Notes under the pieces: generated by a model | Databases searched by the model: none | What the model saw: the letters and a program-made list of their open reading frames with translations, nothing else | What the model was told of the DNA's origin: nothing | Program-made: the position numbers and the translations under genes | Part shown: positions 9,849 to 61,760 of the stretch, in pieces | Position numbering within the stretch: the first letter of the stretch is position 1 | Layout of the letters: every line of letters begins with the position of its first letter | Origin: an uncultured Gammaproteobacteria bacterium | GTDB taxonomy: Bacteria; Patescibacteriota; Patescibacteriia; UBA1558; GWA2-36-10 | DNA: 64,000 bases | Reading direction: 5' to 3' | NCBI GenBank assembly: GCA_964633905.1 | Contig: CAZWIT010000003.1 | Location: 67,193 to 131,192, forward strand

Positions 9849-9900
9849 AGCTATATTATAACAAAAATTTAACTTATTAACGAGCCTATAAATTACCTAA

Positions 9901-13125: not shown

Positions 13126-13224
13126 ATATAAATAATTTTAAATTAATTAGTCTGCTATAAGTATATCAAAAAACCACTCCTTTGGGGAATGATTTTACTA
13201 AGATAATAAATACCAATATAATCT

Positions 13225-13341
13225 TTATTTATGCTTTTTTTTAGCCTTAGCTTCAAGCATTAATCTCTTTATTTCTAATCTCTTTTTAGTTTTATGAGAA
13301 TGTGATTTTTTCCTTGGACCAACTGAAAGTCTTTTTGCCAT
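13225..13341 (-). CDS. Small basic protein (38 aa), possibly ribosomal (bL32/bL34-like); not in the ORF track
   Basis: ATG at 13341 (minus), TAA at 13225-13227. MAKRLSVGPRKKSHSHKTKKRLEIKRLMLEAKAKKKHK is extremely Lys/Arg-rich and lies in an otherwise empty 340-bp gap. Confidence 0.35.
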   Translation of the reverse strand: MAKRLSVGPRKKSHSHKTKKRLEIKRLMLEAKAKKKHK

Positions 13342-13470
13342 ATAGATATATTAATTAATATCCGTTATTATAACTTATTTTTAGAATAAAATCAATACTA
13401 AATTAAAATTAAGCAAAAAAACTAATTCTAGAAGCAACGCTGATAACTGCTATTAAAAATAATTATAAAA

Positions 13471-14250
13471 TTAATCACGATCACCTTCGTTATTATCACT
13501 GCGACCTGATCTTCTTTCTTCAACTTTCTGTTTTGAGCGCTCATTTCTTTTTTTACCATTATCTCGCATTTCCTGTTTGACCTCCCTTTCTAGTTCCTCA
13601 TTATATTGGCGAATTTTTTCTTTTGCCTCATCAACCTTAGCTGACACTTTTTGATCTTCATCTTTGGTAATCTCTTCAATATGCTCCAAATATTTAATCA
13701 TTTCTTCATTTTGTTGCTTAATTTTTTGCTTAGCTTCTTTGGCTTTATCTTTATTTTCTATTTTTTTAGAAGTTTTGACAGCTGAATCAACATTATCTAC
13801 AGCTGCATTAATAGTCTCCTGGATATTATTACTAATCACTGCGCTATCTTGATTAACTTTATTTTCGATATTATCTTGAGCTAAATTAATAGCCTCTTTT
13901 AAGCGACGTTCTGATAATTTATTCAAAGTATCGACTTGCGATTTTTTAGTAAAGGATAATTGTTGCTCAACATTTTCAATTGTTTTCTTTAAGGGGTAAA
14001 AAGTGTCCCCAGTAGTAATATGATCATTACTAGCAGCATAAACAGCTGTGCTACCCAATACTACCAATATCAATAGGGACACGTAAGAAATCCTAGCTAG
14101 TAGAGAGTGCGGGTGAAAAAGTGCCTGCTTTGATTTTTGTAATCTGCTTAAAAATAAAAAACGATAGATTTTAAATTTAATTTTAAAATCAGCCTGACGA
14201 CTTAATTTGGCTTTGGGTAGATTAAATAAATCTTTTTCTAAATTATCCAT
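13471..14250 (-). CDS. Membrane-anchored coiled-coil protein, putative anti-sigma factor
   Basis: Overlaps the upstream ECF sigma by 8 bp. Single TM (ISYVSLLILVVLGSTAVYAA) then a K/E-rich coiled coil. Confidence 0.5.
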   Translation of the reverse strand: MDNLEKDLFNLPKAKLSRQADFKIKFKIYRFLFLSRLQKSKQALFHPHSLLARISYVSLLILVVLGSTAVYAASNDHITTGDTFYPLKKTIENVEQQLSFTKKSQVDTLNKLSERRLKEAINLAQDNIENKVNQDSAVISNNIQETINAAVDNVDSAVKTSKKIENKDKAKEAKQKIKQQNEEMIKYLEHIEEITKDEDQKVSAKVDEAKEKIRQYNEELEREVKQEMRDNGKKRNERSKQKVEERRSGRSDNNEGDRD

Positions 14251-14752
14251 ATTTTTTATCTAACATTGATCTTAATTTGGCTAAACTACGACTCATTTTA
14301 GTACGAATTGCACCTTCTTCTTTGGCTAGTAGTTGTGCTATTTCTGAATTAGAGAGCTCATCTACAAAACGTAAAAGCAATATTTCCCTGTCACTCTGCT
14401 CCATTTGATTTATAATCTTCATTACTAGCTCTAACTCATAATTTATCTCTACCTTATGAGTATCCACTTGCGTGAGATACTGTTCTTCAAATAATTGAGT
14501 TTCTCTACCAGCAATGCGATAATGATTAACTAGATGATTATGAGCGATAGCAAATATCCATGACTGAAAAGACTTAGTTTCATCAAAACTATCAAAATTT
14601 TTTAAAGCTTTCAAAAATACCTCCGAAGTTAAGTCTTCAGCCAATTCACGGTTAAAATTTACTCTATACAAAAAATAAACAAAAATCTTATTCTTAAATT
14701 TGTCATAATAGCCTAAAAAATTGTCTTTATGATCACTCATAATAATATACAA
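14243..14752 (-). CDS. ECF-type RNA polymerase sigma-70 factor
   Basis: Region 2 (EVFLKALKNFDSFDETKSFQSWIFAIAHNHLVNHYR) and region 4 (LSNSEIAQLLAKEEGAIRTKMSRSLAKLR). Confidence 0.8.
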   Translation of the reverse strand: MYIIMSDHKDNFLGYYDKFKNKIFVYFLYRVNFNRELAEDLTSEVFLKALKNFDSFDETKSFQSWIFAIAHNHLVNHYRIAGRETQLFEEQYLTQVDTHKVEINYELELVMKIINQMEQSDREILLLRFVDELSNSEIAQLLAKEEGAIRTKMSRSLAKLRSMLDKKYG

Positions 14753-14907
14753 ACATTTGGCAATAATGTGTCAGCGATAAAGGCTATTATAGCAAAATGC
14801 CTTATTTTGTCTACTAATAATATACACTAAAATGGACTATTTGTAACAAAATTTAGCTTGCTTTGTATTAATTTTATAGACAAGCTAATTATTAAAAACA
14901 AAAGCTT

Positions 14908-16215
14908 ATGAAAAAAATATCAACTATATTAACAATCTTAAGTATATCAATACTTTCGATATTTTTGAGCAATAGCGCCAAAGCTAGCAGCTATACCCTT
15001 AGCCAGGTACAAAGCCATAACACGAGCACAGACTGTTGGACAATAGTAAATAACAAAGTCTACAATCTAACTAATTTTATTGCTCTGCACCCAGGCGGAT
15101 CTAGCGCTATTATCTCTTTATGTGGTACTGACGGCACAGCTGCTTTCACTACTCAACATTCAGGCAATACTACTGCTAATAATACTTTAGCTGATTTTTA
15201 TATTGGTGATCTAGCAGACACCACTATACCAACAACGCCTACTAATTTAAGCGCTACTCCCGTATCAGCTTCTCAAATAAACTTAAGCTGGTCAACTTCA
15301 ACTGATAATATTGCTGTTACTGGCTATGCTATTTTTAGAGATGGCTCTGAACTAGCCACTACCACTAATAATAATTTTAGTAATACCGGCTTAAACGCTT
15401 CTACCACTTATAGCTATACCGTCAAAGCTTTTGATGCGGCTGGTAATCGATCGGCTAGCTCTACTGCCGTGAGTGCTACTACTTTTGCTAGCTCTAGTGA
15501 TACAACTGCACCATCAACTCCAACTAATTTAAATGCTAATGTAATTTCCGCTACTCAAATAAACCTAAACTGGTCTACTTCGACTGATAATATTGCTGTT
15601 ACTGGTTATGCTGTTTTCCGTAATGGCACTGAAATTGCTAGTGTAACAACTAATAGCTTTAATAACGTTGGTCTAAGTGCATCCACAACTTATAGCTATA
15701 CTGTCAAAGCTTTTGATGCGGCTGGTAATCGATCCAATAATTCGAATACTGTTTCGGCCACTACTTTGTCCGCCCCCAGTAATGGCGATACTATTGCCCC
15801 TAGTGCCCCCACAAAATTAAAAGCCCATGTTGTTTCTTACCAACACGTTAATCTAAAATGGAAAAAATCTAAAGACAATGTCAAAGTAAAGGGTTACGCC
15901 ATATTTATGAATGGAAAACAAATTGCTACTGTAAAAAAAGACCATTATAACGTTATTCGTTTAACACCTGGCACTAACTACAGCTTTACCATCAGAGCCT
16001 TTGATGCGGCTGGCAATATGTCTGCTGACTCTAACACTATCACTGTTACTACCAAAATTAAAAAAGTAAAAGAAGTAAAGCTAGAGCACCGAGATTCTGA
16101 TGATAATCGTAATGAAAAAATATCAAAAATAAATGAATTAAAAAATAAAATTAATAATCAACTATCAAATATGAAAGTTGATCAAAAGAAAGACAAAAAA
16201 TCAAATAAAAAATAA
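14908..16215 (+). CDS. Secreted multidomain protein: cytochrome b5-like domain + three fibronectin type III repeats + Lys-rich tail
   Basis: Signal peptide, then SHNTSTDCWTIVNNKVYNLTNFIALHPGG (cyt b5 fold). Three ~90-aa repeats (LSWSTSTDNIAVTGYAIFRDG...YSYTVKAFDAAGNRS) are also visible as DNA-level tandem repeats. Confidence 0.7.
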   Translation: MKKISTILTILSISILSIFLSNSAKASSYTLSQVQSHNTSTDCWTIVNNKVYNLTNFIALHPGGSSAIISLCGTDGTAAFTTQHSGNTTANNTLADFYIGDLADTTIPTTPTNLSATPVSASQINLSWSTSTDNIAVTGYAIFRDGSELATTTNNNFSNTGLNASTTYSYTVKAFDAAGNRSASSTAVSATTFASSSDTTAPSTPTNLNANVISATQINLNWSTSTDNIAVTGYAVFRNGTEIASVTTNSFNNVGLSASTTYSYTVKAFDAAGNRSNNSNTVSATTLSAPSNGDTIAPSAPTKLKAHVVSYQHVNLKWKKSKDNVKVKGYAIFMNGKQIATVKKDHYNVIRLTPGTNYSFTIRAFDAAGNMSADSNTITVTTKIKKVKEVKLEHRDSDDNRNEKISKINELKNKINNQLSNMKVDQKKDKKSNKK

Positions 16216-16286
16216 AACTTAATATTACTCAAACTTATCCCCTAAAAAATCTCTCCTATTAAGGAGAGATTTTTATAAATTAAAAA

Positions 16287-16532
16287 TTAAAACCAACCAC
16301 TTTTATCAGCTGCTCTTTTATAGAGCCAATAATTATTATCTGTTTTATACAATAAAGTATAATTCTGCCCTTTGGCATCTTCGAATTCAGCTGAGCCTCT
16401 TGCTTTGGCTTGATCAAAAAAAACTTTAGCTTCTTTTTCCTGAATATCATATTCTAAATAATTAATGCCTGCTTCGGCATCATCCTCGTAAAATACCTTA
16501 TATCCGTCTAATTCTTTATTTTTCATAGACAT
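16287..16532 (-). CDS. Hypothetical small protein
   Basis: 81-aa ORF, no motif. Confidence 0.4.
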   Translation of the reverse strand: MSMKNKELDGYKVFYEDDAEAGINYLEYDIQEKEAKVFFDQAKARGSAEFEDAKGQNYTLLYKTDNNYWLYKRAADKSGWF

Positions 16533-16702
16533 AATATTAATAATTTAATATAGCAAATTAATTATACCAAAAAAACGCTTGCTTGCAGATAATACCTAGA
16601 TAGCCTCCTACCCTACTCAAAATCCAAGCAATAGTGTAAAATACAAAATACTAAAATTGAATAGTCCTTTATTCAATAAAGAATATTAATAATATTATAT
16701 AT

Positions 16703-18049
16703 ATGGAAGAAAATAATTTAATCAGCAAACCAATTCCTGCCTTGATTAGGCAAATTGCAATCCCTGCCAGCATTGGCTTCTTTTTTAATACCATGTATAA
16801 CGTGGTAGACACCTACTATGGCTCCATGATATCAACTCAAGCTGTAGCTGCTATGTCTTTATCCTTCCCTGTATTTTTTGTGATTATCGCTATTGGTTCA
16901 GGAATTTCTACTGGCGCCAGCGCTTTAATTTCTCATGCCCTAGGAGCTGGACAAAGAGAAGAAGCTAAAAAATATTTGAGTCAATCTATTTTATTTACCA
17001 TTGCTTTATCAATTATTCTAACTATTTTAGGTTGGTTAAGCGGCCCTTGGTTATTTACTCTATTAGGTGCTTCTGGCGAATATTTACAAATGGCCTTAAG
17101 CTATACCAATGTAATATTTGGCGGCGTTATTTTATTTGCTTTATCTTTTGTACTCAATGCTAGTCTCACTTCTCAGGGTGATACCAAAACTTTTCGTAAT
17201 TTTTTAATTTTTGGATTTTTCTTAAACTTACTTTTAGATCCTTGGTTTATGTTTGGTGGCTTTGGTATACCAAGCCTAGGTTTAGCTGGTTTAGCTTGGG
17301 CTACCTTATTTGTCCAATTATGCAGTGTGTCTTATATGGCCTACAAATCTATTAAAAGTGGCATTTTATGCAAAAACTGCTGGCACATGTTTAAGCCTGA
17401 AAAAAAATATCTATTTGACATAAGCAAGCAAGCATTTCCCGCTTCTCTTAACATGATGACTATGGCTTTGGGAATTTTTATTATCACTTATTTTATTTCC
17501 TCATTTGGCAAAACAGCCGTAGCTGCCTACGGAATTGCCACCAGAATTGATCAAATATTTCTACTACCAACCATTGGCTTGAATATAGCCAGTCTTACCT
17601 TGATTGGACAAAATAATGGTGCTAAAAAATACGACCGCGTCCAATTGGCATATAAAACAAATTTAAAATATGGCTTTTGGACAGTTTTAATAGGTATGAT
17701 TTTAGTATTATTATTGCCCAAATATTTAATGCAATTTTTTTCAAATGACAGCGAAGTAATTAATACCGGCGTTACTTATTTAAAAATTTCGGCTATCACC
17801 TATTTTACCTATATGATCTTGTCTATCTCTGTGTCTGCTTTACAAGGATTAAAAAAACCAAACTATGCGGTTTGGATTGGCCTGTATCGCCAACTCATTG
17901 CTCCTAGCATGATATTTTGGCTTTTAGCTAAAGAGCTAGGCTGGGGCTTAAATGGTATTTGGTGGGGTATATTTATAATCAATTGGTCAGCAGCGATTTT
18001 TACTTTTTTCTACACCAAACACTACTTAAAACACAAAATTAATTCCTAA
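16703..18049 (+). CDS. MATE-family multidrug/oligosaccharidyl-lipid/polysaccharide efflux transporter
   Basis: 12 TM helices, N-terminal IPASIGFFFNTMYNVVDTYYG motif typical of MATE (NorM-like). Confidence 0.8.
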   Translation: MEENNLISKPIPALIRQIAIPASIGFFFNTMYNVVDTYYGSMISTQAVAAMSLSFPVFFVIIAIGSGISTGASALISHALGAGQREEAKKYLSQSILFTIALSIILTILGWLSGPWLFTLLGASGEYLQMALSYTNVIFGGVILFALSFVLNASLTSQGDTKTFRNFLIFGFFLNLLLDPWFMFGGFGIPSLGLAGLAWATLFVQLCSVSYMAYKSIKSGILCKNCWHMFKPEKKYLFDISKQAFPASLNMMTMALGIFIITYFISSFGKTAVAAYGIATRIDQIFLLPTIGLNIASLTLIGQNNGAKKYDRVQLAYKTNLKYGFWTVLIGMILVLLLPKYLMQFFSNDSEVINTGVTYLKISAITYFTYMILSISVSALQGLKKPNYAVWIGLYRQLIAPSMIFWLLAKELGWGLNGIWWGIFIINWSAAIFTFFYTKHYLKHKINS

Positions 18050-18171
18050 AATATCTAAACAAAAACAGCCTCAAATTATTACCAGGCTGTTTTTGTTAAT
18101 TGTTAATCAAGGATAAATAATCTACATCTGCAAAAAGACCATTAGTTTATAAACTAAGTAGACATCAGTTA

Positions 18172-18603
18172 CTACCCCTTAAATTTTTTGCTAAACCAAA
18201 TAATATAAAATATAAACCCCCCAAAGCTAATAAAACGCGCCCAAGGCAGATCATAGATAGTTGATATAGCTAAAAAAACAAATATTAATAATCCCCCTAA
18301 AATTATTAAAAAAACGGATTTAGTATCTCCATCCCTATATTTTTTACTTAACATCTTGTTAATTTTAGGAAAAAATAAAAAATAAAAAATACTACCTATT
18401 AATCCCACAAAAAATAAAACGATACCCAATATACCTAGAAACCCCTCCCTGTCTGAACCTAATAAAATTCCTAAACCTACTATTAAAAAAATAGGCCCAA
18501 ATATTATTGGCAATAGATTATACAAAAACAACATAAACCAAGGAATATTTCTTCTATTCCCTTGTTCAATAATTTCTTCAATATTTTGTTCCATAATATT
18601 CAA
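18172..18603 (-). CDS. Membrane protein, hypothetical (4 TM)
   Basis: 143-aa hydrophobic ORF. Confidence 0.5.
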   Translation of the reverse strand: MNIMEQNIEEIIEQGNRRNIPWFMLFLYNLLPIIFGPIFLIVGLGILLGSDREGFLGILGIVLFFVGLIGSIFYFLFFPKINKMLSKKYRDGDTKSVFLIILGGLLIFVFLAISTIYDLPWARFISFGGFIFYIIWFSKKFKG

Positions 18604-18619
18604 TTTAATAATACCTCTA

Positions 18620-18705
18620 TTATATCAAAAAACCACCCATTCGAATATACTCAGGGTGATTTTCTGTTGGGATCCTCTGTGGGATGAATTCCGAACCCTA
18701 GATTG
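18620..18705. repeat. Intergenic repeat family copy (terminator hairpin + TTTTTTGATATA + GATTTTCTGTTGGGATCCTCTGTGGGATGAATTCCGAACC core)
   Basis: Shares a ~45-nt core with 23431-23478 and shorter related segments at 13158, 19771, 20800, 22093 and 25397. Confidence 0.6.
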
Positions 18706-18744
18706 GAATAAATTATAATATAATATTCCTATATTAATTAAAAA

Positions 18745-19746
18745 TTAGGGTAAATCTATTTCTAAAACTTCTGAAAATTTCTTCTCCGCTTCTCCAGGCG
18801 TACCATCCTCATACTTTTCTATTATTCTACCCTCTAATATCAGTCTTCTATCTTCTGTTATTTCTTTTATTCTGTAGTCTATCTTCTCATTATCTACCAA
18901 AATGATTTCTTTATTATCACTAATTCGTTTAAATACAGCCTTACCAAAAACAAATATATTGCCTGGAGCTGGGGGGTCTATGGGGTAATATGATTTAGTT
19001 GATTCTAAATAAACAACACTATCTCCATTATCTGTAAAAACTGCTTTAGCAGTTGCTAGATCTAAAATTTCTTTAGTTTGTACATTCAGAGTGGCATAAT
19101 AATGCCATAGAATAGTGCCTGGATTCCATTGAAATGCATAATACTGCCCTTCTATAACTAAATCAGTGCCTGAAATTGACTCTAAAATAATCAAATTATT
19201 ATCATTTGACCATTTAACTGGTAAGTGAATGCCCCAACCACCATTCCAGCCAGCTTTAGAAGTTGACACAATTTTATTTAAAAACTTTTGAAAAAATGAT
19301 AAATCATCATCAGGTTTATTATCAAATACGGTTTCCACTAACCCCGTCTCTAAATCTTTAATTTTTATTTTATAATGTAACGAACATTCTTCTTCACAAG
19401 ACGGATGTCTAGTATATTTATTCAATTCTGCATAAGCTAATTTTTTACCATCATTTGATAATACAGAATTAATAAATATGTAACCATCTTCTAAAACTAC
19501 TTCCTCTTTTTTGTCGTCAAACCTAAACTCATCTGGTAATTCTTTTAAAGTGATTTCCTCTGTTTTTGTGCCTTCTGTTATTCCTTCATTATCTTTAATT
19601 AAGCTATATAAATTATTTATAGTATTTTGCTTATCTATCTCCTGCCAGACAAAAACTCCTACTATAAATATGGAGCCAATTATAGCGGTAATAAATATAG
19701 CCACAATGACATCAGAAAATCCTTTTTGATTTTTAAATACTTTCAT
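18745..19746 (-). CDS. Membrane-anchored hypothetical protein (N-terminal TM, large extracytoplasmic domain)
   Basis: 333-aa ORF with a single N-terminal TM. Confidence 0.55.
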   Translation of the reverse strand: MKVFKNQKGFSDVIVAIFITAIIGSIFIVGVFVWQEIDKQNTINNLYSLIKDNEGITEGTKTEEITLKELPDEFRFDDKKEEVVLEDGYIFINSVLSNDGKKLAYAELNKYTRHPSCEEECSLHYKIKIKDLETGLVETVFDNKPDDDLSFFQKFLNKIVSTSKAGWNGGWGIHLPVKWSNDNNLIILESISGTDLVIEGQYYAFQWNPGTILWHYYATLNVQTKEILDLATAKAVFTDNGDSVVYLESTKSYYPIDPPAPGNIFVFGKAVFKRISDNKEIILVDNEKIDYRIKEITEDRRLILEGRIIEKYEDGTPGEAEKKFSEVLEIDLP

Positions 19747-19770
19747 AATTTTATTTAAATTTTATAACTT

Positions 19771-19885
19771 CATTATATCAAAAAACCCCGCCAGAGGCGA
19801 GGTAAACATTCCAAGAGGAATGATTATTTGAACCGTCTCGACCCGCAAGACTCGCCGATGCGAGGCGGGTGGGATCCTCTGCAAG
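19771..19885. repeat. Intergenic repeat family copy, highly structured (nested stems CCCGCC...GGCGGG, GGCGAG...CTCGCC, CATTCC...GGAATG) ending GGGATCCTCTGCAAG
   Basis: Shares the tatatcaaaaaacc start and the GGGATCCTCTG core with the other copies. Confidence 0.5.
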
Positions 19886-19895
19886 AAATTTTTTA

Positions 19896-20771
19896 CTACT
19901 TATTGCTATTTATCACGCCCTCTAAACACTGCCTATCATCTAATAAATAATCACATATGGTATCATCCCCTTTAATGCGGGCCAATGTACTGAAACATTC
20001 ATTTATATTCATCAGACTAACCTTTTTACAATATTCTTCATTCAAAGTGGTTTTTGCATGGGCTATATAACAAGTACTTTTAAAAGGAGCAGCTTCATTT
20101 TCACATTTTTCAACTTGTAAATAAGACAAATCTACTGCCGAAGGTTTTTCTTTAAAACAGAAACATTCGTTAGTACTCTTAACAAACATTGGGCTACTTT
20201 CACAAATTTCTCTACAACCATCCAAACTTTTCGCTGTTCCATCAGCGGGATGCATCCATCCATAACCATTAATTTTCCAAACTCCATTATCTTTTATCAG
20301 ATAAATATACTGCGGTTTTTTTTGACGATTATTTTTTATAGCCATTACCTTTAATACTGCCACATCATTTTTTATATCTACATTATCTATTGTGTATTCT
20401 AAGCCATTAAATTGACTTAAAAACATATTTTCTAAACTAAGCTCCTTAATCTCAGGATATAGCGCCGCCGTTTCTTTTGCTGATTTTAAAAAACTTTCTG
20501 ATGAATATATATAAGAAAAATATTTATCAACATCAACATTTTTAGCAGCAGTCATTGCTTCCGCAAAAACCTCTTCTGGGGTCGAATTATTGATATCAAC
20601 TTCTAAAAGTTTATCGCTATCAGTAATTTTGCCTTCAATATTATTAACATTTAAATCCGTTAGGATATTTGCCTTACCATCGCTAATATTTTGCTGACTA
20701 GCTTTTTTAGGGATTAAGGTGCACCCGGTAATAATGACTGGAAATAAAATTAATAAAATAAATCTTTTCAT
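19896..20771 (-). CDS. Lipoprotein with Cys-rich C-terminal domain, hypothetical
   Basis: Lipobox (IITGCTL). The C-terminal third contains 13 Cys. Confidence 0.55.
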   Translation of the reverse strand: MKRFILLILFPVIITGCTLIPKKASQQNISDGKANILTDLNVNNIEGKITDSDKLLEVDINNSTPEEVFAEAMTAAKNVDVDKYFSYIYSSESFLKSAKETAALYPEIKELSLENMFLSQFNGLEYTIDNVDIKNDVAVLKVMAIKNNRQKKPQYIYLIKDNGVWKINGYGWMHPADGTAKSLDGCREICESSPMFVKSTNECFCFKEKPSAVDLSYLQVEKCENEAAPFKSTCYIAHAKTTLNEEYCKKVSLMNINECFSTLARIKGDDTICDYLLDDRQCLEGVINSNK

Positions 20772-20870
20772 AATTTAAATTTAATATTAAACATTATAAG
20801 TATATCAAAAAACCACCTCTTAGCGAAGTGAATACTAAAAACTAAATCAATATTAAGATTAAAATTTTAT

Positions 20871-22019
20871 TTATTTTTTCAAAATATTTTTATACAGATC
20901 TACCATATTATCCATTAAACGATCTGCCTGAAAATTTTGTGCTGTCTTTATGGCTTGTTGAGATAATTGAAAACGCAGATCGTCATTATTGAGTAATAAG
21001 TTTATCTTTTCAATAGACTCTTCTAAACTATTTACCGCAAAACCATTTTCATAATCACGTATAACTTCTGGCACTACACCAACCGGATAAGCAACTGGTA
21101 CTAAGCCTTGCGACATGGCTTCTATCAGGCTTAAAGAAAACCCCTCATAACGAGATGGCATAAATAAAATAGCACCACGATATTGAGCTAAAATACTTGG
21201 AATATTTCTCTTAACTGCATTAACAAATAAAACATGATTATTAATCTGTTGACGCAACCAAGATAATAGTGGTTTATTACGAGACATTACTATAGATACT
21301 TTTTGTATATCTGGAAATTGATTAAAAACACTAATTAGACGATTGACACCTTTTAATTTTAAAGTAAAAGCATCCTCACCAATACGACCCAAAAAAACAA
21401 TAGCGCGACTATTAGTTTCTATAGAGGCTGTGCTTTTTTGCTCTTCAAACCAATAATCTTCCACAGCATTATGCAAAATTTTTATTTTGTCTGACTGAAC
21501 TCCTACAGAAATAAGATCATTTTTTACAATACTAGACGTAGCCATAATATGATCGACTCTTTCAGCTGCATACTGTTCAATAACAGCAATATCATTGAGT
21601 GGTCTCCTGGTCTTGATATCTAATTCCTTAATGGCTCCGTCTTTTTTTAATCTATAAAAAATACGTCTACAATCATCTTCTAGAGCGCTAGCCTTTGGCA
21701 CGGACCTCAAAAAACCGATAGTAGTTGATCCAAAATGAGAAACTATCGGTTTAGAAAAACGCAAAAAAGCTAATGGCGTATAAGTAGTACCTTGAATAAT
21801 ATCATGCCGCAAAATTTGATCACGTTTTTCTAACAAAGAATAAAAATAAAGAATATTATTAATACCCTTAAAATGAGTTGGAGTATCCTTTAAAGTAAAA
21901 CTTGGATAAAAATTATTTACCTCAATTCCTCGCTCGCGCAATTTACAACTAATCAGATCATTTATAAAATGAGCGCCTGTTCCTATTTTTTTATCACTAT
22001 GAATCAAGGCAATTTTCAT
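20871..22019 (-). CDS. Glycosyltransferase family 4 (GT-B fold)
   Basis: C-terminal EX7E-type motif region: SRYEGFSLSLIEAMSQGLVPVAYPVGVVPEVIRDYENGFAV. Confidence 0.75.
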   Translation of the reverse strand: MKIALIHSDKKIGTGAHFINDLISCKLRERGIEVNNFYPSFTLKDTPTHFKGINNILYFYSLLEKRDQILRHDIIQGTTYTPLAFLRFSKPIVSHFGSTTIGFLRSVPKASALEDDCRRIFYRLKKDGAIKELDIKTRRPLNDIAVIEQYAAERVDHIMATSSIVKNDLISVGVQSDKIKILHNAVEDYWFEEQKSTASIETNSRAIVFLGRIGEDAFTLKLKGVNRLISVFNQFPDIQKVSIVMSRNKPLLSWLRQQINNHVLFVNAVKRNIPSILAQYRGAILFMPSRYEGFSLSLIEAMSQGLVPVAYPVGVVPEVIRDYENGFAVNSLEESIEKINLLLNNDDLRFQLSQQAIKTAQNFQADRLMDNMVDLYKNILKK

Positions 22020-22092
22020 TTATTTACATTAAAATAATTTTAAGTCACACTTTTTTAATAGTAATAAAATTTTTTCTATACGTCAATAAATA

Positions 22093-22226
22093 ACAAATAT
22101 CAAAAAACTACCCATTCGACTACGCTCTCTTCGAGTCTGAGTGGCGAGGCCACTAGACCTCAGAGCCGAAAGCAGGGTAATCTTCTGTTGGAACCCAATA
22201 AAAACGATTCTTATAAACTAGCCTTG
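22093..22226. repeat. Intergenic repeat family copy (tatcaaaaaactacccattcga... stems ...gggtaatcttctgttggaaccc)
   Basis: Related to the 18620 copy (acccattcga start; cttctgttgg core). Confidence 0.45.
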
Positions 22227-22973
22227 CTACTCCTTAATAATCTCTAAAGATAAACTTTCCAGTGGCAAACCCTGGTATTGTTTTTTACTAATTTCTTTAT
22301 TCTCACCTAAAATATTCACCTGCAAACCAGCTTGTTTTACTTTGGCAATATAATTATCTTTCAAAAGTGCTCCACCCACACAGCCAGCTATCAAATCTTC
22401 GTTATTCCTCTGCTCTTCAGATAAATCCTCTAATAACACAATATCAGAAATACACATTTTCCCGCCTTGCTTTAAAACACGATAAGCTTCTTGAAAAACT
22501 TTTAATTTGTCAGGAGCTAAATTGATAACGCAGTTGCTAATAATAATATCAATAGAATTATCCTCTATTGGTAAATTCTCAATTTCCCCTAATTTAAATT
22601 CGACATTATTATATTTATATTTATTAGCTAAAATAGTAGCTTTGACAATCATCTCCTGAGTCATGTCTACGCCAATAACTTTACCAGTCTCACCAACTTT
22701 TTTAGCTGCCAAAAAAGCATCAAAGCCAGCCCCAGAGCCAAGATCCAAAACAACATCACCGACTTTAATTTTACTGATAGTAATTGGATTGCCACAACCT
22801 AAGCCCATATTAGCCTCGGGTACTACAATCATCTCTTCATCAGAGTAGCCAATACTTTTAGAAATTGACTGGCTAGTATCCGAACCACAGCTACACTTGC
22901 AGCCACAGCCAGATTGCTTAGCTAATTTAGCATAATTATCTTTTACTACTTTTTTTACTTCTTCGGCTTGCAT
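22227..22973 (-). CDS. SAM-dependent methyltransferase, arsenite methyltransferase (ArsM)-like with Cys-rich N-terminus
   Basis: VLDLGSGAGFDAFLAAKKVGETGKVIGVDMTQEM (class I SAM motif I/II). N-terminal CGCKCSCGSD and conserved Cys as in ArsM/UbiE-like enzymes. Confidence 0.65.
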   Translation of the reverse strand: MQAEEVKKVVKDNYAKLAKQSGCGCKCSCGSDTSQSISKSIGYSDEEMIVVPEANMGLGCGNPITISKIKVGDVVLDLGSGAGFDAFLAAKKVGETGKVIGVDMTQEMIVKATILANKYKYNNVEFKLGEIENLPIEDNSIDIIISNCVINLAPDKLKVFQEAYRVLKQGGKMCISDIVLLEDLSEEQRNNEDLIAGCVGGALLKDNYIAKVKQAGLQVNILGENKEISKKQYQGLPLESLSLEIIKE

Positions 22974-23035
22974 AAATTAATCTATTTTTTTATTTAATAA
23001 CTTTTTTATTATATCACACAAAAGAAAAAACTTTT

Positions 23036-23398
23036 TCATATTTTGCTAATTATATAACCAGCAAAAATAAAGCTCAAAATTATTATTATATAAACGATAA
23101 TATTATCAATTATGGCGTAAATCTTAAAAGACCTGGTACCATTATTGCGAACAAACATATGATAGTAATAATAACGATGCCAATGATAACTTGTATAATA
23201 TAAGAATATTAAAAAAATAATAAAAAATAAAAATAATAATATGAAAGTGACTATCTTATTTACTCCTTCACTAGTATTTAAAAATGTGCAAAACAGAATA
23301 ACTTCTAGCACCGCAGACAAAATTAAATAAGGAATCTTTTGATAAAGTTGATTTTTGTAATACTCTTTATTTTTTTTCTGTAAACTAAATAACCACAT
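23036..23398 (-). CDS. Membrane protein, hypothetical
   Basis: 120-aa hydrophobic ORF. Confidence 0.4.
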   Translation of the reverse strand: MWLFSLQKKNKEYYKNQLYQKIPYLILSAVLEVILFCTFLNTSEGVNKIVTFILLFLFFIIFLIFLYYTSYHWHRYYYYHMFVRNNGTRSFKIYAIIDNIIVYIIIILSFIFAGYIISKI

Positions 23399-23520
23399 AT
23401 TGATAGTATATCAAAAAACCATTCCGTTTGGAATGATTTTCTGTTGGGGTCCGTTGTGGGATGAATTCAGAACCTTTTATAATAAGTATAGCGGTGACGA
23501 TTTACGAAGATTAAGCTATT
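23399..23520. repeat. Intergenic repeat family copy (gtatatcaaaaaacc-CATTCCgtttGGAATG-GATTTTCTGTTGGGGTCCGTTGTGGGATGAATTCAGAACC)
   Basis: Near-identical core to 18656-18700. Confidence 0.6.
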
Positions 23521-23522
23521 TA

Positions 23523-24257
23523 TTAAATATTGGCTAAATCTTTCTCTATTTTTTCCTTTAACCATTTTTTAAACTCCTCGAAATCAATGTAGCCATACTT
23601 GCGATCTTCATCATTTGGATTAGAACTCGTATATTCAAATCTCTCTTGAATATCTGTAAAAAAATCTTCATGTTTCTCGGTTAAATCACCATCTTTTACT
23701 TTAGTGACAAAATAAGTATAGAAATCTTCCTCAAATTTATTATAATCTGATTTGCCCGCAGTTGCTTCCGATAATTTATCTAATAAGTATTTAAAAAGTA
23801 CGGTTCTCTTTAATCTTTGATCTTTTTCTTTATCCAAAAAATCTTGCAAAATTTTATAAACATCTTTATAAGATGTTTCTCGTAATTCATCTTGAAAGAA
23901 AAATAATGAATTAGCTAATATATCCCTTTCATTGAATTTCCCATTAAACATAAGGCCCAGATACCTATCTCTAAATTTAGGATAATAGTTATATAACCTA
24001 GCATTTGATGTGACAACCCAACCGCCATACCCAGAATCATTCCAATACTTTAATGCATCAAATAAAATTGACGGTACTCTATCATCATTATCAATAAAAC
24101 TCAAAAGTATGGCGGCTGTACATTTATTACGAGCATCTTCGTATTTATTATAAAAACCAATGAGCTCTTCTGTGTGAGCTTTGGTTAATTTATTTTTATT
24201 ATTTAGGTCCCAATATTTTTTGAACTCCTTGGACTCTTTTTTAAATTTATTTTTCAT
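23523..24257 (-). CDS. Hypothetical protein
   Basis: 244-aa ORF, no motif. Confidence 0.5.
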   Translation of the reverse strand: MKNKFKKESKEFKKYWDLNNKNKLTKAHTEELIGFYNKYEDARNKCTAAILLSFIDNDDRVPSILFDALKYWNDSGYGGWVVTSNARLYNYYPKFRDRYLGLMFNGKFNERDILANSLFFFQDELRETSYKDVYKILQDFLDKEKDQRLKRTVLFKYLLDKLSEATAGKSDYNKFEEDFYTYFVTKVKDGDLTEKHEDFFTDIQERFEYTSSNPNDEDRKYGYIDFEEFKKWLKEKIEKDLANI

Positions 24258-24273
24258 TTTTAGAGACTTAGGA

Positions 24274-25338
24274 TTAAAAATATAATTTCTTCCTATTTTG
24301 TATAAAAACTATAAGTAATGCTAGTGCAAAAAAATTCACTTTTATTAACAAAGATATATTATCTAAATCTAAAGTCGAACCAAATGGAATACTAATCATC
24401 TGGCTAAAATCTAATATAATATTATTAAACCCTAAAATCACCGCTTGTAGAGCAGACCAAATAATACCAATTATTATGCCCGCTTTCTTTTTTTGAAATA
24501 AAAATATAGACCCAATTACCCCAAGTATAGATACTGGCATACCAAACATTATAAAATTTGAATTAAACAAGATAACTAAATAATTTATTAATTGACCTAA
24601 GCTCATAACAAGCATTAACCATTTCATAACCCCCATCATCTTGCTAAGATGTTTCCTTTTACTTTCTTCTTGTTTATTTTCTTGTTCTGTCGGCTTATTT
24701 ATAGGAAAACTATCTTCTGGCTTATAGTACTTGAATAACCTATCAATATATATTTCTAACTCTTCTTTTTTTACTTTTCCCAAAATTTTATCAGCCCTCC
24801 TATCCAAATTAATTATAAAATTATCAGCGTCATTAGGAAAACTATATGTAAAATTATAAGAATCAATAATAAAATCTTCTTTCTGTTCCTCTTTTAATTT
24901 TAAATAATAGTCGTTAAGTTTTCCCATTCCTTGAATAATGTTCTCGATAACAATTTTTACCTTATTGAATTCTGCCTTATCGCTCTTTAAACTATTTGCT
25001 ATGTCACTTCCTTTTCTAACATTGGTAATAAAATTAGCCCCAACAAAAGGATTCATATTTTCTAAAAACTCTTTAGCCTCCTCTATTGAATATCCGTACC
25101 AATTATCATCTGATAACTTTTTAGCTAGATCATCAAAACTATAATATTCTTTTAAGAAATATATACCATCACGAGTAATGTCTGATTCTCCAGTATGAAT
25201 TTCGTCCAATATATAAGCTAATTTATCAAAATCAATAAAGTCCTTAACATAAAAAGGACCAGAACCACTTTGATATAAAGTAAATGCTAAAACTTTTCCC
25301 TTATACTTTTCCTCAATTTTTGATTTATCATTTTCCAT
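24274..25338 (-). CDS. Hypothetical protein with C-terminal 4-TM domain
   Basis: 354-aa ORF: soluble N-domain then TM helices. Confidence 0.5.
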   Translation of the reverse strand: MENDKSKIEEKYKGKVLAFTLYQSGSGPFYVKDFIDFDKLAYILDEIHTGESDITRDGIYFLKEYYSFDDLAKKLSDDNWYGYSIEEAKEFLENMNPFVGANFITNVRKGSDIANSLKSDKAEFNKVKIVIENIIQGMGKLNDYYLKLKEEQKEDFIIDSYNFTYSFPNDADNFIINLDRRADKILGKVKKEELEIYIDRLFKYYKPEDSFPINKPTEQENKQEESKRKHLSKMMGVMKWLMLVMSLGQLINYLVILFNSNFIMFGMPVSILGVIGSIFLFQKKKAGIIIGIIWSALQAVILGFNNIILDFSQMISIPFGSTLDLDNISLLIKVNFFALALLIVFIQNRKKLYF

Positions 25339-25436
25339 ATATAAATCATACCAAAAATTATTAATAAAAACTACTTAAAGTTCTATAGCCATTCTGGGTG
25401 TATCAAAAAATTAGCTAAGATTAGCTAACTTTTTGG

Positions 25437-25512
25437 TGGGGTGCCTAAAGGGAATTGAACCCTTATCAGCGGTGCCACAAACCGCTGTGTTAACCGTTAC
25501 ACCATAGGCACC
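25437..25512 (-). tRNA. tRNA-His (anticodon GTG) with encoded G-1 and CCA
   Basis: Minus-strand read GGTGCCTATGGTGTAACGGTTAACACAGCGGTTTGTGGCACCGCTGATAAGGGTTCAATTCCCTTTAGGCACCCCA. Cloverleaf with extra 5' G, discriminator C. The anticodon loop read TTGTGGC gives GTG. Confidence 0.8.
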
Positions 25513-25528
25513 ATATAAAAAATTTACG

Positions 25529-25605
25529 TGGTGTCCCCAGCACGGCTCGAACGTGCAACCTACAGCTTAGAAGGCTGTTGCTCTATCCAATTGAGCTATG
25601 AGGAC
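25529..25605 (-). tRNA. tRNA-Arg (anticodon TCT) with encoded CCA
   Basis: Minus-strand read GTCCTCATAGCTCAATTGGATAGAGCAACAGCCTTCTAAGCTGTAGGTTGCACGTTCGAGCCGTGCTGGGGACACCA. All four stems pair; anticodon loop CTTCTAA. Confidence 0.8.
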
Positions 25606-25810
25606 TTATTAAAAAATAGATAAGCTGCCTACATTATAAATGTAAATAAACATTTTGTTTATCACTACTTGTCCCGAGCGTAGCCGAAGGAAGCTATGAG
25701 GACTTAAAAAAATGAACAAATTAACTAATGATTATTAATAATCATCGCTGAGTATAACAGTAATAGCCTATTTAGTCAATCCCATAATTAGTTTTAATTA
25801 GAGCTAAAAT

Positions 25811-33150: not shown

Positions 33151-33264
33151 AAATATAGTTTCTAATTTCTAAACATTCACCCCGTGGAATACCACCAAAA
33201 TTTAACAAATAAATTTTAATTGCTATTTAAATATTTTTATAATAACAATTCAAAATTATAAAAC

Positions 33265-33308
33265 TAAAGCTGGTGGTAGTTTCCGCTTACAGCGGAAACT
33301 ATTCCACT
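33265..33308. other. Long imperfect hairpin (~17 bp stem: CTGGTGGTAGTTTCCGC-ttaca-GCGGAAACTAttCCACtGGG) in the korA upstream region
   Basis: Direct reading; 8 bp perfect core GTTTCCGC/GCGGAAAC. Confidence 0.4.
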
Positions 33309-33342
33309 GGGTAAATTATAACAGAAAGCTCAATTATTTTCT

Positions 33343-33379
33343 AATTAAAACAAAACCCAGCCCTTTACAGAGGGGCTGG
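33343..33379 (-). terminator. Intrinsic terminator CCAGCCCC-tctgtaaa-GGGCTGGG + TTTTGTTTTAATT (minus strand)
   Basis: 8-bp GC stem followed by a T-rich tract on the minus strand, downstream of the small ORFs at 33543-33856. Confidence 0.55.
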
Positions 33380-33542
33380 ATCGGTAGGCCTTAGAGCAAA
33401 CCTTAAAAAAATATTAGTCAGGGGGGCATTTTATTAAATTTTAATAATTAAGCATAGCTGGCATAAGCTGCCCAACTAAACAAAAGTAAAATGTGCATTG
33501 AATAGCTACTTAGATAAAATTTATTTATCATATGTTTTATAA

Positions 33543-33683
33543 TTATATCCAGGTTGATGCCCAGACAAAATAACTTAACACTATCAGGGATAAAATAGCC
33601 CAATTTTCATGACTAGCAACTTCGGGCGAGCAATAAAAATCGCTTTTACGCCAAGAAGTTACCTTGCATTGTGGTGTTTCCAT
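33543..33683 (-). CDS. Small tail-anchored membrane peptide (46 aa), candidate; not in the ORF track
   Basis: METPQCKVTSWRKSDFYCSPEVASHENWAILSLIVLSYFVWASTWI. Immediately follows the 33713..33856 ORF in the same promoter-terminator unit. Confidence 0.3.
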   Translation of the reverse strand: METPQCKVTSWRKSDFYCSPEVASHENWAILSLIVLSYFVWASTWI

Positions 33684-33712
33684 AATTTTATTTTTATTTA
33701 ATTATAATTAAC

Positions 33713-33856
33713 TTAAACTGTTTGACTCATCATTACTATTAAAGTAATAGACCCTACTAAACATAGTAAGATAATTGCCCAATAATCACCGGATCGCAAT
33801 TTGGCATCACCGGGGCGTACTACTAATCTAAAAGATTTAATTTGACCATCATTCAT
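33713..33856 (-). CDS. Small tail-anchored membrane peptide (47 aa), candidate; not in the ORF track
   Basis: MNDGQIKSFRLVVRPGDAKLRSGDYWAIILLCLVGSITLIVMMSQTV. Lies downstream of the consensus promoter and of a leader hairpin ending in a U-run. Confidence 0.35.
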   Translation of the reverse strand: MNDGQIKSFRLVVRPGDAKLRSGDYWAIILLCLVGSITLIVMMSQTV

Positions 33857-33927
33857 ATATTTTATAGATAAATAAAAAATTGGCCGCAAGAGACAGTTCT
33901 CTTAAGCCAATTTTAAACTACATATAC

Positions 33928-33956
33928 ATGATAGCATAAAAAAATGCTTTTGTCAA
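33928..33956 (-). promoter_or_regulatory. Consensus sigma70 promoter TTGACA-17-TATCAT (minus strand), followed by leader hairpin AATTGGC-ttAAGAGAactgTCTCTTgc-GGCCAATTTTTT (33870-33912)
   Basis: -35 at 33951-33956, -10 at 33928-33933. The nested stem-loop plus U-run sits immediately before the ATG of the 33713..33856 ORF. Confidence 0.5.
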
Positions 33957-33984
33957 TCAAAACAAATATTTTTTATTAAAAAAT

Positions 33985-34022
33985 CCCGCCTAACGCCTGT
34001 AATAACGTTTCAGCGGGAAAAA
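33985..34022 (-). terminator. Intrinsic terminator TCCCGC-(22 nt loop)-GCGGGA + TTTTTTAAT
   Basis: Directly after the stop (34023) of the 57-aa membrane protein gene. Confidence 0.5.
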
Positions 34023-61624: not shown

Positions 61625-61643
61625 AAAAATTATCAAAATAATG

Positions 61644-61718
61644 CCCCTATAGCTCAGCTGGTAGAGCAGTTGCCTCTTAAGCAAACGGTCGTAGGTTCGA
61701 ATCCTGCTGGGGGCACCA
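61644..61718 (+). tRNA. tRNA-Lys (anticodon CTT) with encoded CCA
   Basis: GCCCCTATAGCTCAGCTGGTAGAGCAGTTGCCTCTTAAGCAAACGGTCGTAGGTTCGAATCCTGCTGGGGGCACCA. Anticodon loop CTCTTAA; 27:43 G-A mismatch. Confidence 0.75.
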
Positions 61719-61724
61719 GAAAAT

Positions 61725-61760
61725 CAAGTACAACGTGCTTGTTTTTTATTTTTAAAAATA
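61725..61760 (+). terminator. Terminator-like hairpin CAAGTAC-aac-GTGCTTG + TTTTTTATTTTT after the tRNA pair
   Basis: Stem with one mismatch followed by a T-run. Confidence 0.45.

Follow-up and report, generated by a model that had tools for sequence, protein, structure and literature searches.

Composite modules between accessory genes behind a tRNA-His gene of Patescibacteria: probable junctions of small, mostly integrase-less islands

INTRODUCTION

Tandem accretion and integrase-less cis-mobilizable elements (CIMEs) form an established concept, as in ICESt1-type arrays (PMC5704250). Partial tRNA duplications have been documented as attR scars (PMC9897764). Here we analyse a 64,000-nt stretch (hereafter the window) of contig CAZWIT010000003.1, whose genes have their nearest named relatives in metagenome-assembled genomes of Patescibacteria. 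In it, composite intergenic modules separate the units of an accessory-gene array that starts at a tRNA-His(GTG) gene. We propose that the modules are probably junctions, each combining an att-like remnant, a terminator and a promoter, of small and mostly integrase-less islands accreted at that tRNA gene. Copies of the tRNA end at some of the joints suggest repeated insertion of foreign genes.

Patescibacteria, or candidate phyla radiation (CPR), have tiny genomes, and their gene gain and loss are poorly understood. To our knowledge, few mobile elements have been recognised in them. We found no earlier description of such modules in the full-text literature, the coverage of which is incomplete.

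RESULTS

Core. A preliminary description of the window had listed seven related intergenic sites, and all are present where it placed them; we call them G, B, C, F, D, A and E in order of decreasing coordinate (Table 1). Each lies between genes on the minus (coding) strand and carries a hairpin followed by TTTTTTGATAyA. The core sequence that had been reported at several of them is found in full at two (18657-18697 and 23434-23474, 90% identical over 41 nt). A search of all 64 kb gave no further full copy, only two partial ones, at 19870-19882 (GCAGAGGATCCCA) and within 22102-22219 (GGGTTCCAACAGAAGATTA...). The core consists of an arm of about 30 nt, then (G)ACCCCA, then ACAGAAAATCA. Its 3′ part matches the end of a tRNA gene: the 17-mer ACCCCAACAGAAAATCA equals exactly the tRNA-His 3′ end plus trailer of two relatives, L076 and L007, and in the window it occurs only at B (no mismatch) and A (one mismatch), which none of 200 shuffles matched. 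In L007 and L076 the genuine tRNA-His ends ...GGCACCCCA and continues with ACAGAAAATCA, a hairpin and GGTTTTTTGATATACT; in L076, L007 and L107 the gene is followed by (A/T)CAGAAAATCA, a hairpin and GGTTTTTTGAT. The trailers at B and A are unlike the present trailer of the window's own tRNA-His. Since the array starts at tRNA-His and the 3′ part of the core equals the relatives' tRNA-His end and trailer, we read the modules as att-type junctions of inserted islands, and the core, judged by its letters, appears to be such a junction and not a structured RNA.

Direct repeats in relatives. Syntenic loci (L numbers) were collected through RpiB homologues. For each locus, a 20-mer made of the last 6 nt of tRNA-His and 14 nt of its trailer was used as the query. 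It recurs 0.6-5.8 kb downstream in six related loci (Table 1), with 0-2 of 200 shuffles as good, and a non-tRNA arm stands in front of the downstream repeat in all six. The 3′ half of tRNA-His has, besides, a 40-nt duplicate in L111. An arm pattern, AGTTC/AGTCC...GACCCCA with a fixed 30-nt spacing from AGTTC/AGTCC to CCCA, is found at ten junctions in eight loci, and arm B is the top window match (E = 0.03) of a hidden Markov model (HMM) built from three arms of other genomes. We rejected the possibility that the core is a decayed tRNA-His 3′ half, as alignment scores of the arms against the tRNA did not rise above those of shuffles (p = 0.06-1).

The 30-nt core pattern had no match among GTDB representative genomes; a looser pattern hit 82 loci in the genome collection, nearly all by chance, the only relatives being L076 and L078. 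A metagenome scan for the 3′ part of the core gave seven loci, with L004 and L007 as relatives. Viral, phage and plasmid collections gave no matches.

Variable gene content. The synteny RpiB-Rpe-Big_13-PFOR is kept among the relatives, and a tRNA-Arg/tRNA-His pair lies beside RpiB in L094, L096, L098, L099, L104 and L107, but the genes after tRNA-His differ in every relative. The DNA of L076 shares about 85% identity with the window. A methyltransferase gene (window 22227-22973) comes directly after tRNA-His in L107; two extra units stand between them in L076. Its product is 80-93% identical in amino acid sequence over all pairs among the window, L076, L098, L104 and L107. Compared with the window it is 83-89% identical in these four loci, whereas their RpiB is only 62-66% identical, so that the gene is either unusually constrained or has moved between lineages.

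Differences reach down to the strain level. In strain contig L002 (Logan, sample DRR784968), with flanks 99.8% and 97% identical to the window, a single gene for a 121-aa DUF7980 protein (L002 1718-2099) replaces window 18094-20848, that is, three genes and sites F, D and A; in L076 the homologue of this DUF7980 gene sits behind an H-type module. Contigs with an identical RpiB break just after tRNA-His, and we take the many contig breaks at this spot to reflect population heterogeneity. An exact empty site for a single window unit was not found: look-ups with the 354-aa, 120-aa and 333-aa proteins returned only the same context, and one with the methyltransferase returned no record.

Recombinase genes. 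L096 encodes a large serine recombinase, the 3′ end of its gene overlapping the tRNA-His 3′ end. In L111 the neighbour of the tRNA pair is a gene for a Xer-like tyrosine recombinase (L111 7446-8399). Of the islands examined in relatives, that of L096 alone has a recombinase. A 531-aa protein beside tRNA-His in L104 was considered as a hidden recombinase and rejected, having no Pfam match and no similarity to the L096 enzyme. In the window, a partial gene for a Xer-like tyrosine recombinase (Phage_integrase, E = 2e-14) occupies positions 2-505 and is truncated by the left end; its product has 31% identity with the L111 recombinase.

Between tRNA-Arg and tRNA-His there are genes of homing-endonuclease type, LAGLIDADG_3 in L094 (9126-9569, a weak match) and GIY-YIG in L096 (5242-5541). 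In L099 (9853-11275), a few kilobases from conserved PFOR genes, an RVT_1 reverse transcriptase gene adjoins a bAvd gene, a pair typical of diversity-generating retroelements.

Terminator. The conserved tail reported after the hairpins holds up statistically: TTTTTTGATATA has 14 matches in the window at up to one mismatch against 4.3 expected, a number reached in none of 100 shuffles. Half of the 14 lie on the minus strand at 13.1-25.4 kb, directly after a hairpin and directly before a gene. Five of these are exact (13162, 18621, 19774, 20801 and 23407), with no exact copy outside 13-25.4 kb, and two have one mismatch (TTTTTTGATATT at 22096, TTTTTTGATACA at 25399). The full 15-mer GGTTTTTTGATATAC is exact at three sites only (13158, 20800 and 23399); two sites have ...GATATAA. 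Every site folds as an A-tract/hairpin/U-tract stem. When six modules from four genomes were checked for covariation with RNAalifold, the sole consensus structure was this terminator stem, with compensatory CG<->UA changes, and no structure was found in the core. A scan for terminator-like sites found 20 in 12-26 kb against 5.6 expected; it lists D and F on the coding (minus) strand and has the inner hairpin of D, as well as B, only as opposite-strand readings, while the long loops of A and C are beyond its loop limit.

The trailer of the tRNA-Lys gene (window 61643-61760) reads CCA-GAAAATCA-hairpin-TTTTTT, with the same A-tract motif as the array modules.

Extended -10 box. What follows the T-run is TG-A-TATA(C/A)T, that is, an extended -10 sequence whose TG directly abuts the T-run. 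The TTGATA in this tail had been proposed as a -35 box. Spacing rules that out, because at 23399-23413 the ATG comes 6 nt after TATACT. Of the 82 window matches to TGnTATAAT (up to one mismatch), 31 fall in the intergenic 13.9% of the sequence, and 22 of those 31 have a same-strand start no more than 120 nt downstream; to judge by their placement, boxes of this type are a common promoter-like signal upstream of genes in the window. Nine genomes together have 31 cases of hairpin, T-run, TGnTATAMT and start in this order, with 6 or 15-35 nt from box to start. A generic -35/-10 scan was uninformative (74 found, 72.5 expected). We therefore describe the tail as a predicted terminator T-run fused to a predicted extended -10 promoter (TGATATAMT), and we infer termination and promoter activity from these signals. 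This fits that part of the preliminary description in which the modules supply a run of mostly single-gene units with terminators and promoter signals, both of them predicted.

The free position of the box is A in eight of the 22 gene-proximal boxes, six of these being in array modules or site E; outside the array it varies. The invariant A, the preceding TGG and the common hairpins show that the array copies are homologous. At three places (23399-23413, 25339-25353 and 9855-9863) the box lies just 6 nt before the first ATG, a spacing that suggests leaderless mRNAs.

Hairpin types. Hairpin sub-types recur as had been noted, CATTCC..GGAATG at three sites (13194, 19825 and 23438) and CACCC/TACCC..TCGAATGGGT at two (18658 and 22127). 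Types F, H, M and G also recur, partly base for base, in genomes with RpiB only 62-66% identical, and as sequence resemblances these recurrences point to common descent of the modules. The 17-mer hairpin of site F has an identical copy 3′ of tRNA-His in L076 and L107, and is also found in L098. Hairpins similar in sequence to that of site C lie 3′ of the methyltransferase gene in L076, L098 and L104, and are presumably orthologous to it. The 3′ half of site D is 80% identical to L078 3679-3782.

Sites C and D (22093-22226 and 19771-19885) hold nested GC-rich palindromes, which may be a mobile palindrome, the end of an element or an RNA. Palindromes related to them are found in L078 and L111 at junctions linked to tRNA genes; these two loci have the palindrome motif of site D, and GC-rich inserts lie at L078 2505-2715 and L111 8520-8725. 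L094 has a related hairpin with a GAGCG loop. In L111 a CCGCCTCG..CGAGGCGG palindrome splits a 5′ fragment of a pseudo-tRNA-His.

L078 has, in an AT-rich genome, a 210-nt GC-rich non-coding segment (2505-2715; fold z = -7.8 against shuffles; no Rfam match), flanked by a terminator and a tRNA-His-end fragment (CTCTGGCCACCCCA). In the window (25606-25760, minus strand, especially 25671-25705), a second copy of roughly the first 14 nt of tRNA-Arg(TCT) (AAGTCCTCATAGCT) stands some 100 nt farther upstream. After it comes TTCGGCTACGCTCGGGAC, which inverts the GAGCGTAG(T/C)CGAA hairpin-loop motif of sites A and C. A similar partial copy of the tRNA-Arg 5′ end, with a TGAGCGAAGCGAA hairpin, is present in L094, and in L111 a GC-rich insert of about 200 nt stands between repeats of the tRNA-Arg 3′ end.

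Array and host. The units between the modules have one or two genes each and are 0.5-2.3 kb long. Their cargo is accessory in kind: glycosyltransferase, methyltransferase, membrane or orphan proteins (Table 1). The two unit 1 proteins (354 and 244 aa) have no Pfam match at the curated cut-off, only matches far below it. The 333-aa protein has few homologues among about 5.8 billion sequences: its own entry at 100%, one match at 49% (81% query cover) and three short partials. No integrase or recombinase was found by Pfam among the 10 array open reading frames (ORFs). The array ends in a predicted terminator that it has in common with a convergent MATE gene. Site E stands apart, in a separate accessory segment of about 1.4 kb flanked by the DUF5667 and purA genes; in L094 no gene is called in the interval between that pair, and the window segment appears to be an insert.

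The window is AT-rich (34% GC), with a coding density of 86.6% under code 11. An alternative code with TGA as a sense codon was rejected on that density and on TGA serving as the stop in 3 of 79 ORFs. Rfam 15 at gathering score gives four tRNAs in the window and nothing else. About 870 nt at 33151-34022 have no ORF of at least 60 aa and no Rfam match, and contain several TGnTATAAT boxes.

Table 1. Features of the array and its modules (window positions), and repeats of the tRNA-His end in related loci (distances downstream)
Feature	Position	Strand	Basis and remarks
tRNA-Arg(TCT), just upstream of tRNA-His	25529-25605		
tRNA-His(GTG), array anchor	25437-25511	-	ARAGORN and Rfam; 3′ end ...GGCACCCCA at 25437
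Site G: present tRNA-His trailer and predicted terminator (CCAAAAAGTTAGCTAATCTTAGCTAATTTTTT), then GATACACC	25405-25436	-	Fold -15.2 kcal/mol, z = -8.3
Predicted promoter of next gene after site G: TGGTATGAT	25345-25353, within 25339-25353	-	
Unit 1 cargo: 354-aa and 244-aa proteins, function unassigned	23523-25338	-	ORF list
Site B arm and putative junction: AAAAGGTTCTGAATTCATCCCACAACGG-ACCCCA	23445-23478	-	5′ part of the 41-nt core
Site B trailer ACAGAAAATCA, H-type hairpin (CATTCC AAAC GGAATG) and T-run	23413-23444	-	Fold z = -3.7
Site B extended -10 box TGATATACT	23405-23413	-	ATG of the 120-aa gene 6 nt on
Unit 2 cargo: 120-aa protein and S-adenosylmethionine (SAM)-dependent methyltransferase (248 aa)	22227-23398	-	Pfam
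Site C overall	22102-22219	-	Fold z = -2.9; degenerate arm ...GGGTTCCA at 22189-22219
Site C 3′ part: trailer ACAGAAGATTA, M-type hairpin (TACCC..GAGCGTAGTCGAATGGGTA), T-run, GATATT			
Site C nested 45-nt palindromic insert inside the M-type hairpin	22128-22172	-	
Group-1 glycosyltransferase (382 aa), cargo	20871-22019	-	Pfam
Site F: F-type hairpin CACTTCGCTAAGAGGTG and T-run fused to TGATATACT	20799-20832	-	Without arm, without CCCA
291-aa cargo protein, N-terminus lipoprotein-signal-like	19896-20771	-	Signal judged from sequence
Site D overall	19772-19882	-	Fold z = -3.6; arm fragment GCAGAGGATCCCA at 19870-19882
Site D GC-rich palindrome CCCGCCTCGC..GCGGG	19833-19869	-	
Site D H-type hairpin	19807-19825	-	
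Site D G-type hairpin and T-run	19780-19803	-	
Site D TGATATAAT	19772-19780	-	
333-aa orphan cargo protein	18745-19746	-	Homologue search
Site A arm and putative junction: CTAGGGTTCGGAATTCATCCCACAGAGG-ATCCCA	18668-18701	-	
Site A trailer ACAGAAAATCA and M-type hairpin (CACCC TGAGTATATTCGAAT GGGTG)	18619-18667	-	
Site A T-run fused to TGATATAAT	18619-18627	-	
Last unit: 143-aa protein	18172-18603	-	ORF list
Site E: H-type hairpin and T-run fused to TGATATACT	13160-13196	-	Fold z = -3.0; without arm, without CCCA
Repeat in L007	+559 nt		0/20 mismatches, 46-nt exact; brackets a 138-aa gene
Repeat in L094	+1712 nt		0/20 mismatches, 44-nt; brackets a peptidase gene
Repeat in L076	+1035 nt		2/20 mismatches
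Repeat in L104	+5759 nt		3/20 mismatches
Repeat in L111	+4175 nt		3/20 mismatches; brackets an ars island
Repeat in L098	+654 nt		5/20 mismatches; brackets an acetyltransferase gene

DISCUSSION

Accretion at tRNA-His. In the explanation we favour, a full module would have three layers. The first would be an element-side arm of about 30 nt ending in (G)ACCCCA and followed by ACAGAAAATCA, in which the copy of the last 6 nt of tRNA-His and its trailer would be an attR-like scar. The second would be an intrinsic terminator (A-tract, GC hairpin, U-tract) closing the upstream unit, and the third an extended -10 box, TG-A-TATAMT, at a distance of 6 nt or 15-35 nt from the next gene, which it would drive. 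Islands of one or two genes would integrate successively and site-specifically at the tRNA-His 3′ end. Each newcomer would bring a new trailer and shift the previous trailer, terminator and promoter downstream, where its own arm would then precede them. Such accretion would explain why B and A have the older ACAGAAAATCA trailer while tRNA-His now has a different one, and on this model the window array would hold at least four junctions (B, C, D and A). Recombination or gene conversion between similar modules would then shuffle hairpins and yield arm-less copies such as E and F. The recombinase, not encoded in the window array, would act in trans or have since been lost. Site-specific excision of unit 1 would leave an empty site in which tRNA-His ...ACCCCA is joined to ACAGAAAATCATTCC... 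and the 120-aa gene; in the excised circle, CCAAAAAGTTAGC... and the 354-aa gene would follow on GACCCCA, preceded by arm B and the 3′ end of the 244-aa gene.

Several observations weigh against this explanation. There is no integrase within the window array, nor in the islands of L007, L076, L094, L098 and L104, and the units are just one or two genes long. The repeats include no more than 6-7 nt of the tRNA itself, and the present trailer of the window's tRNA-His (site G) has no repeat downstream in the window. Similarity of the arms between genomes is marginal: the best E-value is that of B, arm A was not detected, and the reverse search was empty. Sites E and F have neither arm nor CCCA, and E lies outside the tRNA-His array. 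In L076, modules M2 and M4 have an identical promoter and 5′ untranslated region (UTR) before different genes, and the hairpin of M2 is chimeric, which homologous recombination or gene conversion fits better than integration. Finally, the T-run/TGnTATAAT fusion is also seen at core genes such as purA and PFOR, so the conservation of the tail is partly a functional syntax of the lineage and not common ancestry.

Other explanations. The last two points are the strength of a scheme without site-specific integration, which we consider rather unlikely overall. In it the locus would be a hot spot of homologous recombination, for instance after DNA uptake, where a lineage-wide terminator-promoter syntax was duplicated locally and homogenised by gene conversion, and the copies of CCCA plus trailer would be local duplications of the tRNA trailer. 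The fusion at core genes is found in several genomes, the tRNA-Lys trailer is built alike, almost no island has an integrase, and the difference between L002 and the window is a replacement without att-like repeats at both ends. Yet the exact 44-46-nt direct repeats of L007 and L094 begin precisely at the tRNA ACCCCA and bracket single genes, and in L096 a serine recombinase abuts tRNA-His. The arms before the repeats are not tRNA-like and yet have a fixed spacing and motifs common between genomes; local duplication leaves the different arm at each copy unexplained. Recombination sites of another kind are also conceivable. The modules might belong to an integron-like gene-capture system of Patescibacteria with its recombinase encoded elsewhere, a reading we hold to be unlikely. 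Cassettes of one or two genes, each with one composite site (arm, CCCA, trailer, sequence-conserved hairpin, T-run/-10), would have been inserted one by one at the tRNA-His 3′ end. The recombinase would recognise hairpin types F, H, M and G. A cassette would carry its own terminator and promoter and would therefore be expressed wherever it landed.

The preliminary description had offered two readings of its own, and neither fared well. A family of mobile palindromes akin to miniature inverted-repeat transposable elements (MITEs) or repetitive extragenic palindromic (REP) sequences, inserted between genes and incidentally giving terminators and promoters like the Correia elements of Neisseria, seems improbable. 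In its favour, hairpin types recur across genomes and at places that are not orthologous, the loop of site C encloses a 45-nt palindrome, and the palindrome that splits the pseudo-tRNA-His fragment in L111 has relatives in site D and L078. On the other hand, inspection by eye, with no dedicated search, noted no terminal inverted repeat (TIR) beyond the terminator stem with its A/T tracts and no target-site duplication (TSD). All copies have one orientation relative to the genes and sit exactly between them. Within the 64 kb they occur in two accessory regions only, all on one strand within 13-25.4 kb; neither a transposase nor a RAYT-like gene turned up (Pfam; by eye), and the phage, plasmid and viral collections gave no matches. 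A MITE-like origin may be limited to the nested GC-rich palindromes of sites C and D. The second reading, a family of small structured RNAs (small RNA genes or 3′-UTR elements) each made of core and terminator, we regard as very improbable. In its favour are the -10-like boxes found 8-10 nt before the core at A and B, the terminator after the core, which makes a transcript of about 75 nt conceivable, and the strongly folding 210-nt segment of L078 next to a junction. These upstream boxes, however, are not kept in L076 or L007. No Rfam family was found at the gathering threshold, and no convincing match below it (E <= 5 in 12-26 kb; relatives also scanned). RNAalifold pairs no base in the core, and the arms, which vary greatly from genome to genome, showed neither conserved pairing nor covariation.

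Significance. Behind tRNA-His, several related lineages have a conserved hot spot at which accessory genes lie in self-contained units bounded by predicted stop/start signals, with a cargo across lineages of glycosyltransferase, methyltransferase, arsenic resistance, membrane and orphan proteins. Should the junctions prove to be genuine recombination sites, the repeats of ACCCCA plus trailer, together with GGTTTTTTGATATAMT, would be a sequence handle for finding such arrays in metagenomes, and would offer concrete substrates with which to identify the recombinase behind gene capture in uncultured bacteria. The overlap of terminator and extended -10 box should serve as a useful guide when transcription units of these genomes are annotated.

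Comparison with known systems. The locus resembles tRNA-integrated islands and CIMEs in its array at a tRNA 3′ end, in the direct repeats of the tRNA end around variable cargo, in its row of junctions, in gene content that differs between relatives, and in the recombinase that abuts the tRNA gene in one relative. It differs in that the units have one or two genes, only the L096 island among the relatives' islands examined has a recombinase, only 6-7 nt of the tRNA plus the trailer are repeated, and a predicted terminator and promoter stand at every junction.

With integron arrays it has in common the co-oriented, mostly single-ORF units, imperfectly palindromic spacers with conserved flanks and a centre variable in sequence and length, and insertion apparently at the array head. 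Here, however, there is no intI by the array and no Phage_integrase domain in or next to it. The flanks are ACAGAAAATCA ... TGGTTTTTTGAT, in which inspection by eye found none of the RYYYAAC/GTTRRRY core sites of attC. The head is a tRNA gene and not attI, and most units have their own predicted promoter, whereas integron cassettes are usually promoterless.

Short intergenic palindromic repeats able to stop or start transcription are known as promoter- or terminator-bearing MITEs and REPs (Correia, REP and bacterial interspersed mosaic elements, BIMEs). The palindromes of C and D resemble them, while the modules differ in having no TIR or TSD noted, in not being dispersed over the 64 kb, in their fixed orientation and in their tie to the tRNA end. 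Like ordinary intrinsic terminators and extended -10 promoters, the modules have a GC hairpin with a U-tract and TGnTATAAT at a fixed distance from start codons; unlike them, the two overlap within a 15-nt stretch (a T-run ending in TG-A-TATAMT) that in this array is conserved base for base, including the free 'n'. Islands anchored at tRNA genes, terminators and extended -10 promoters are already known, while the very small, mostly integrase-less units, the compact stop/start joint and the hairpin types common to diverged Patescibacteria are unusual.

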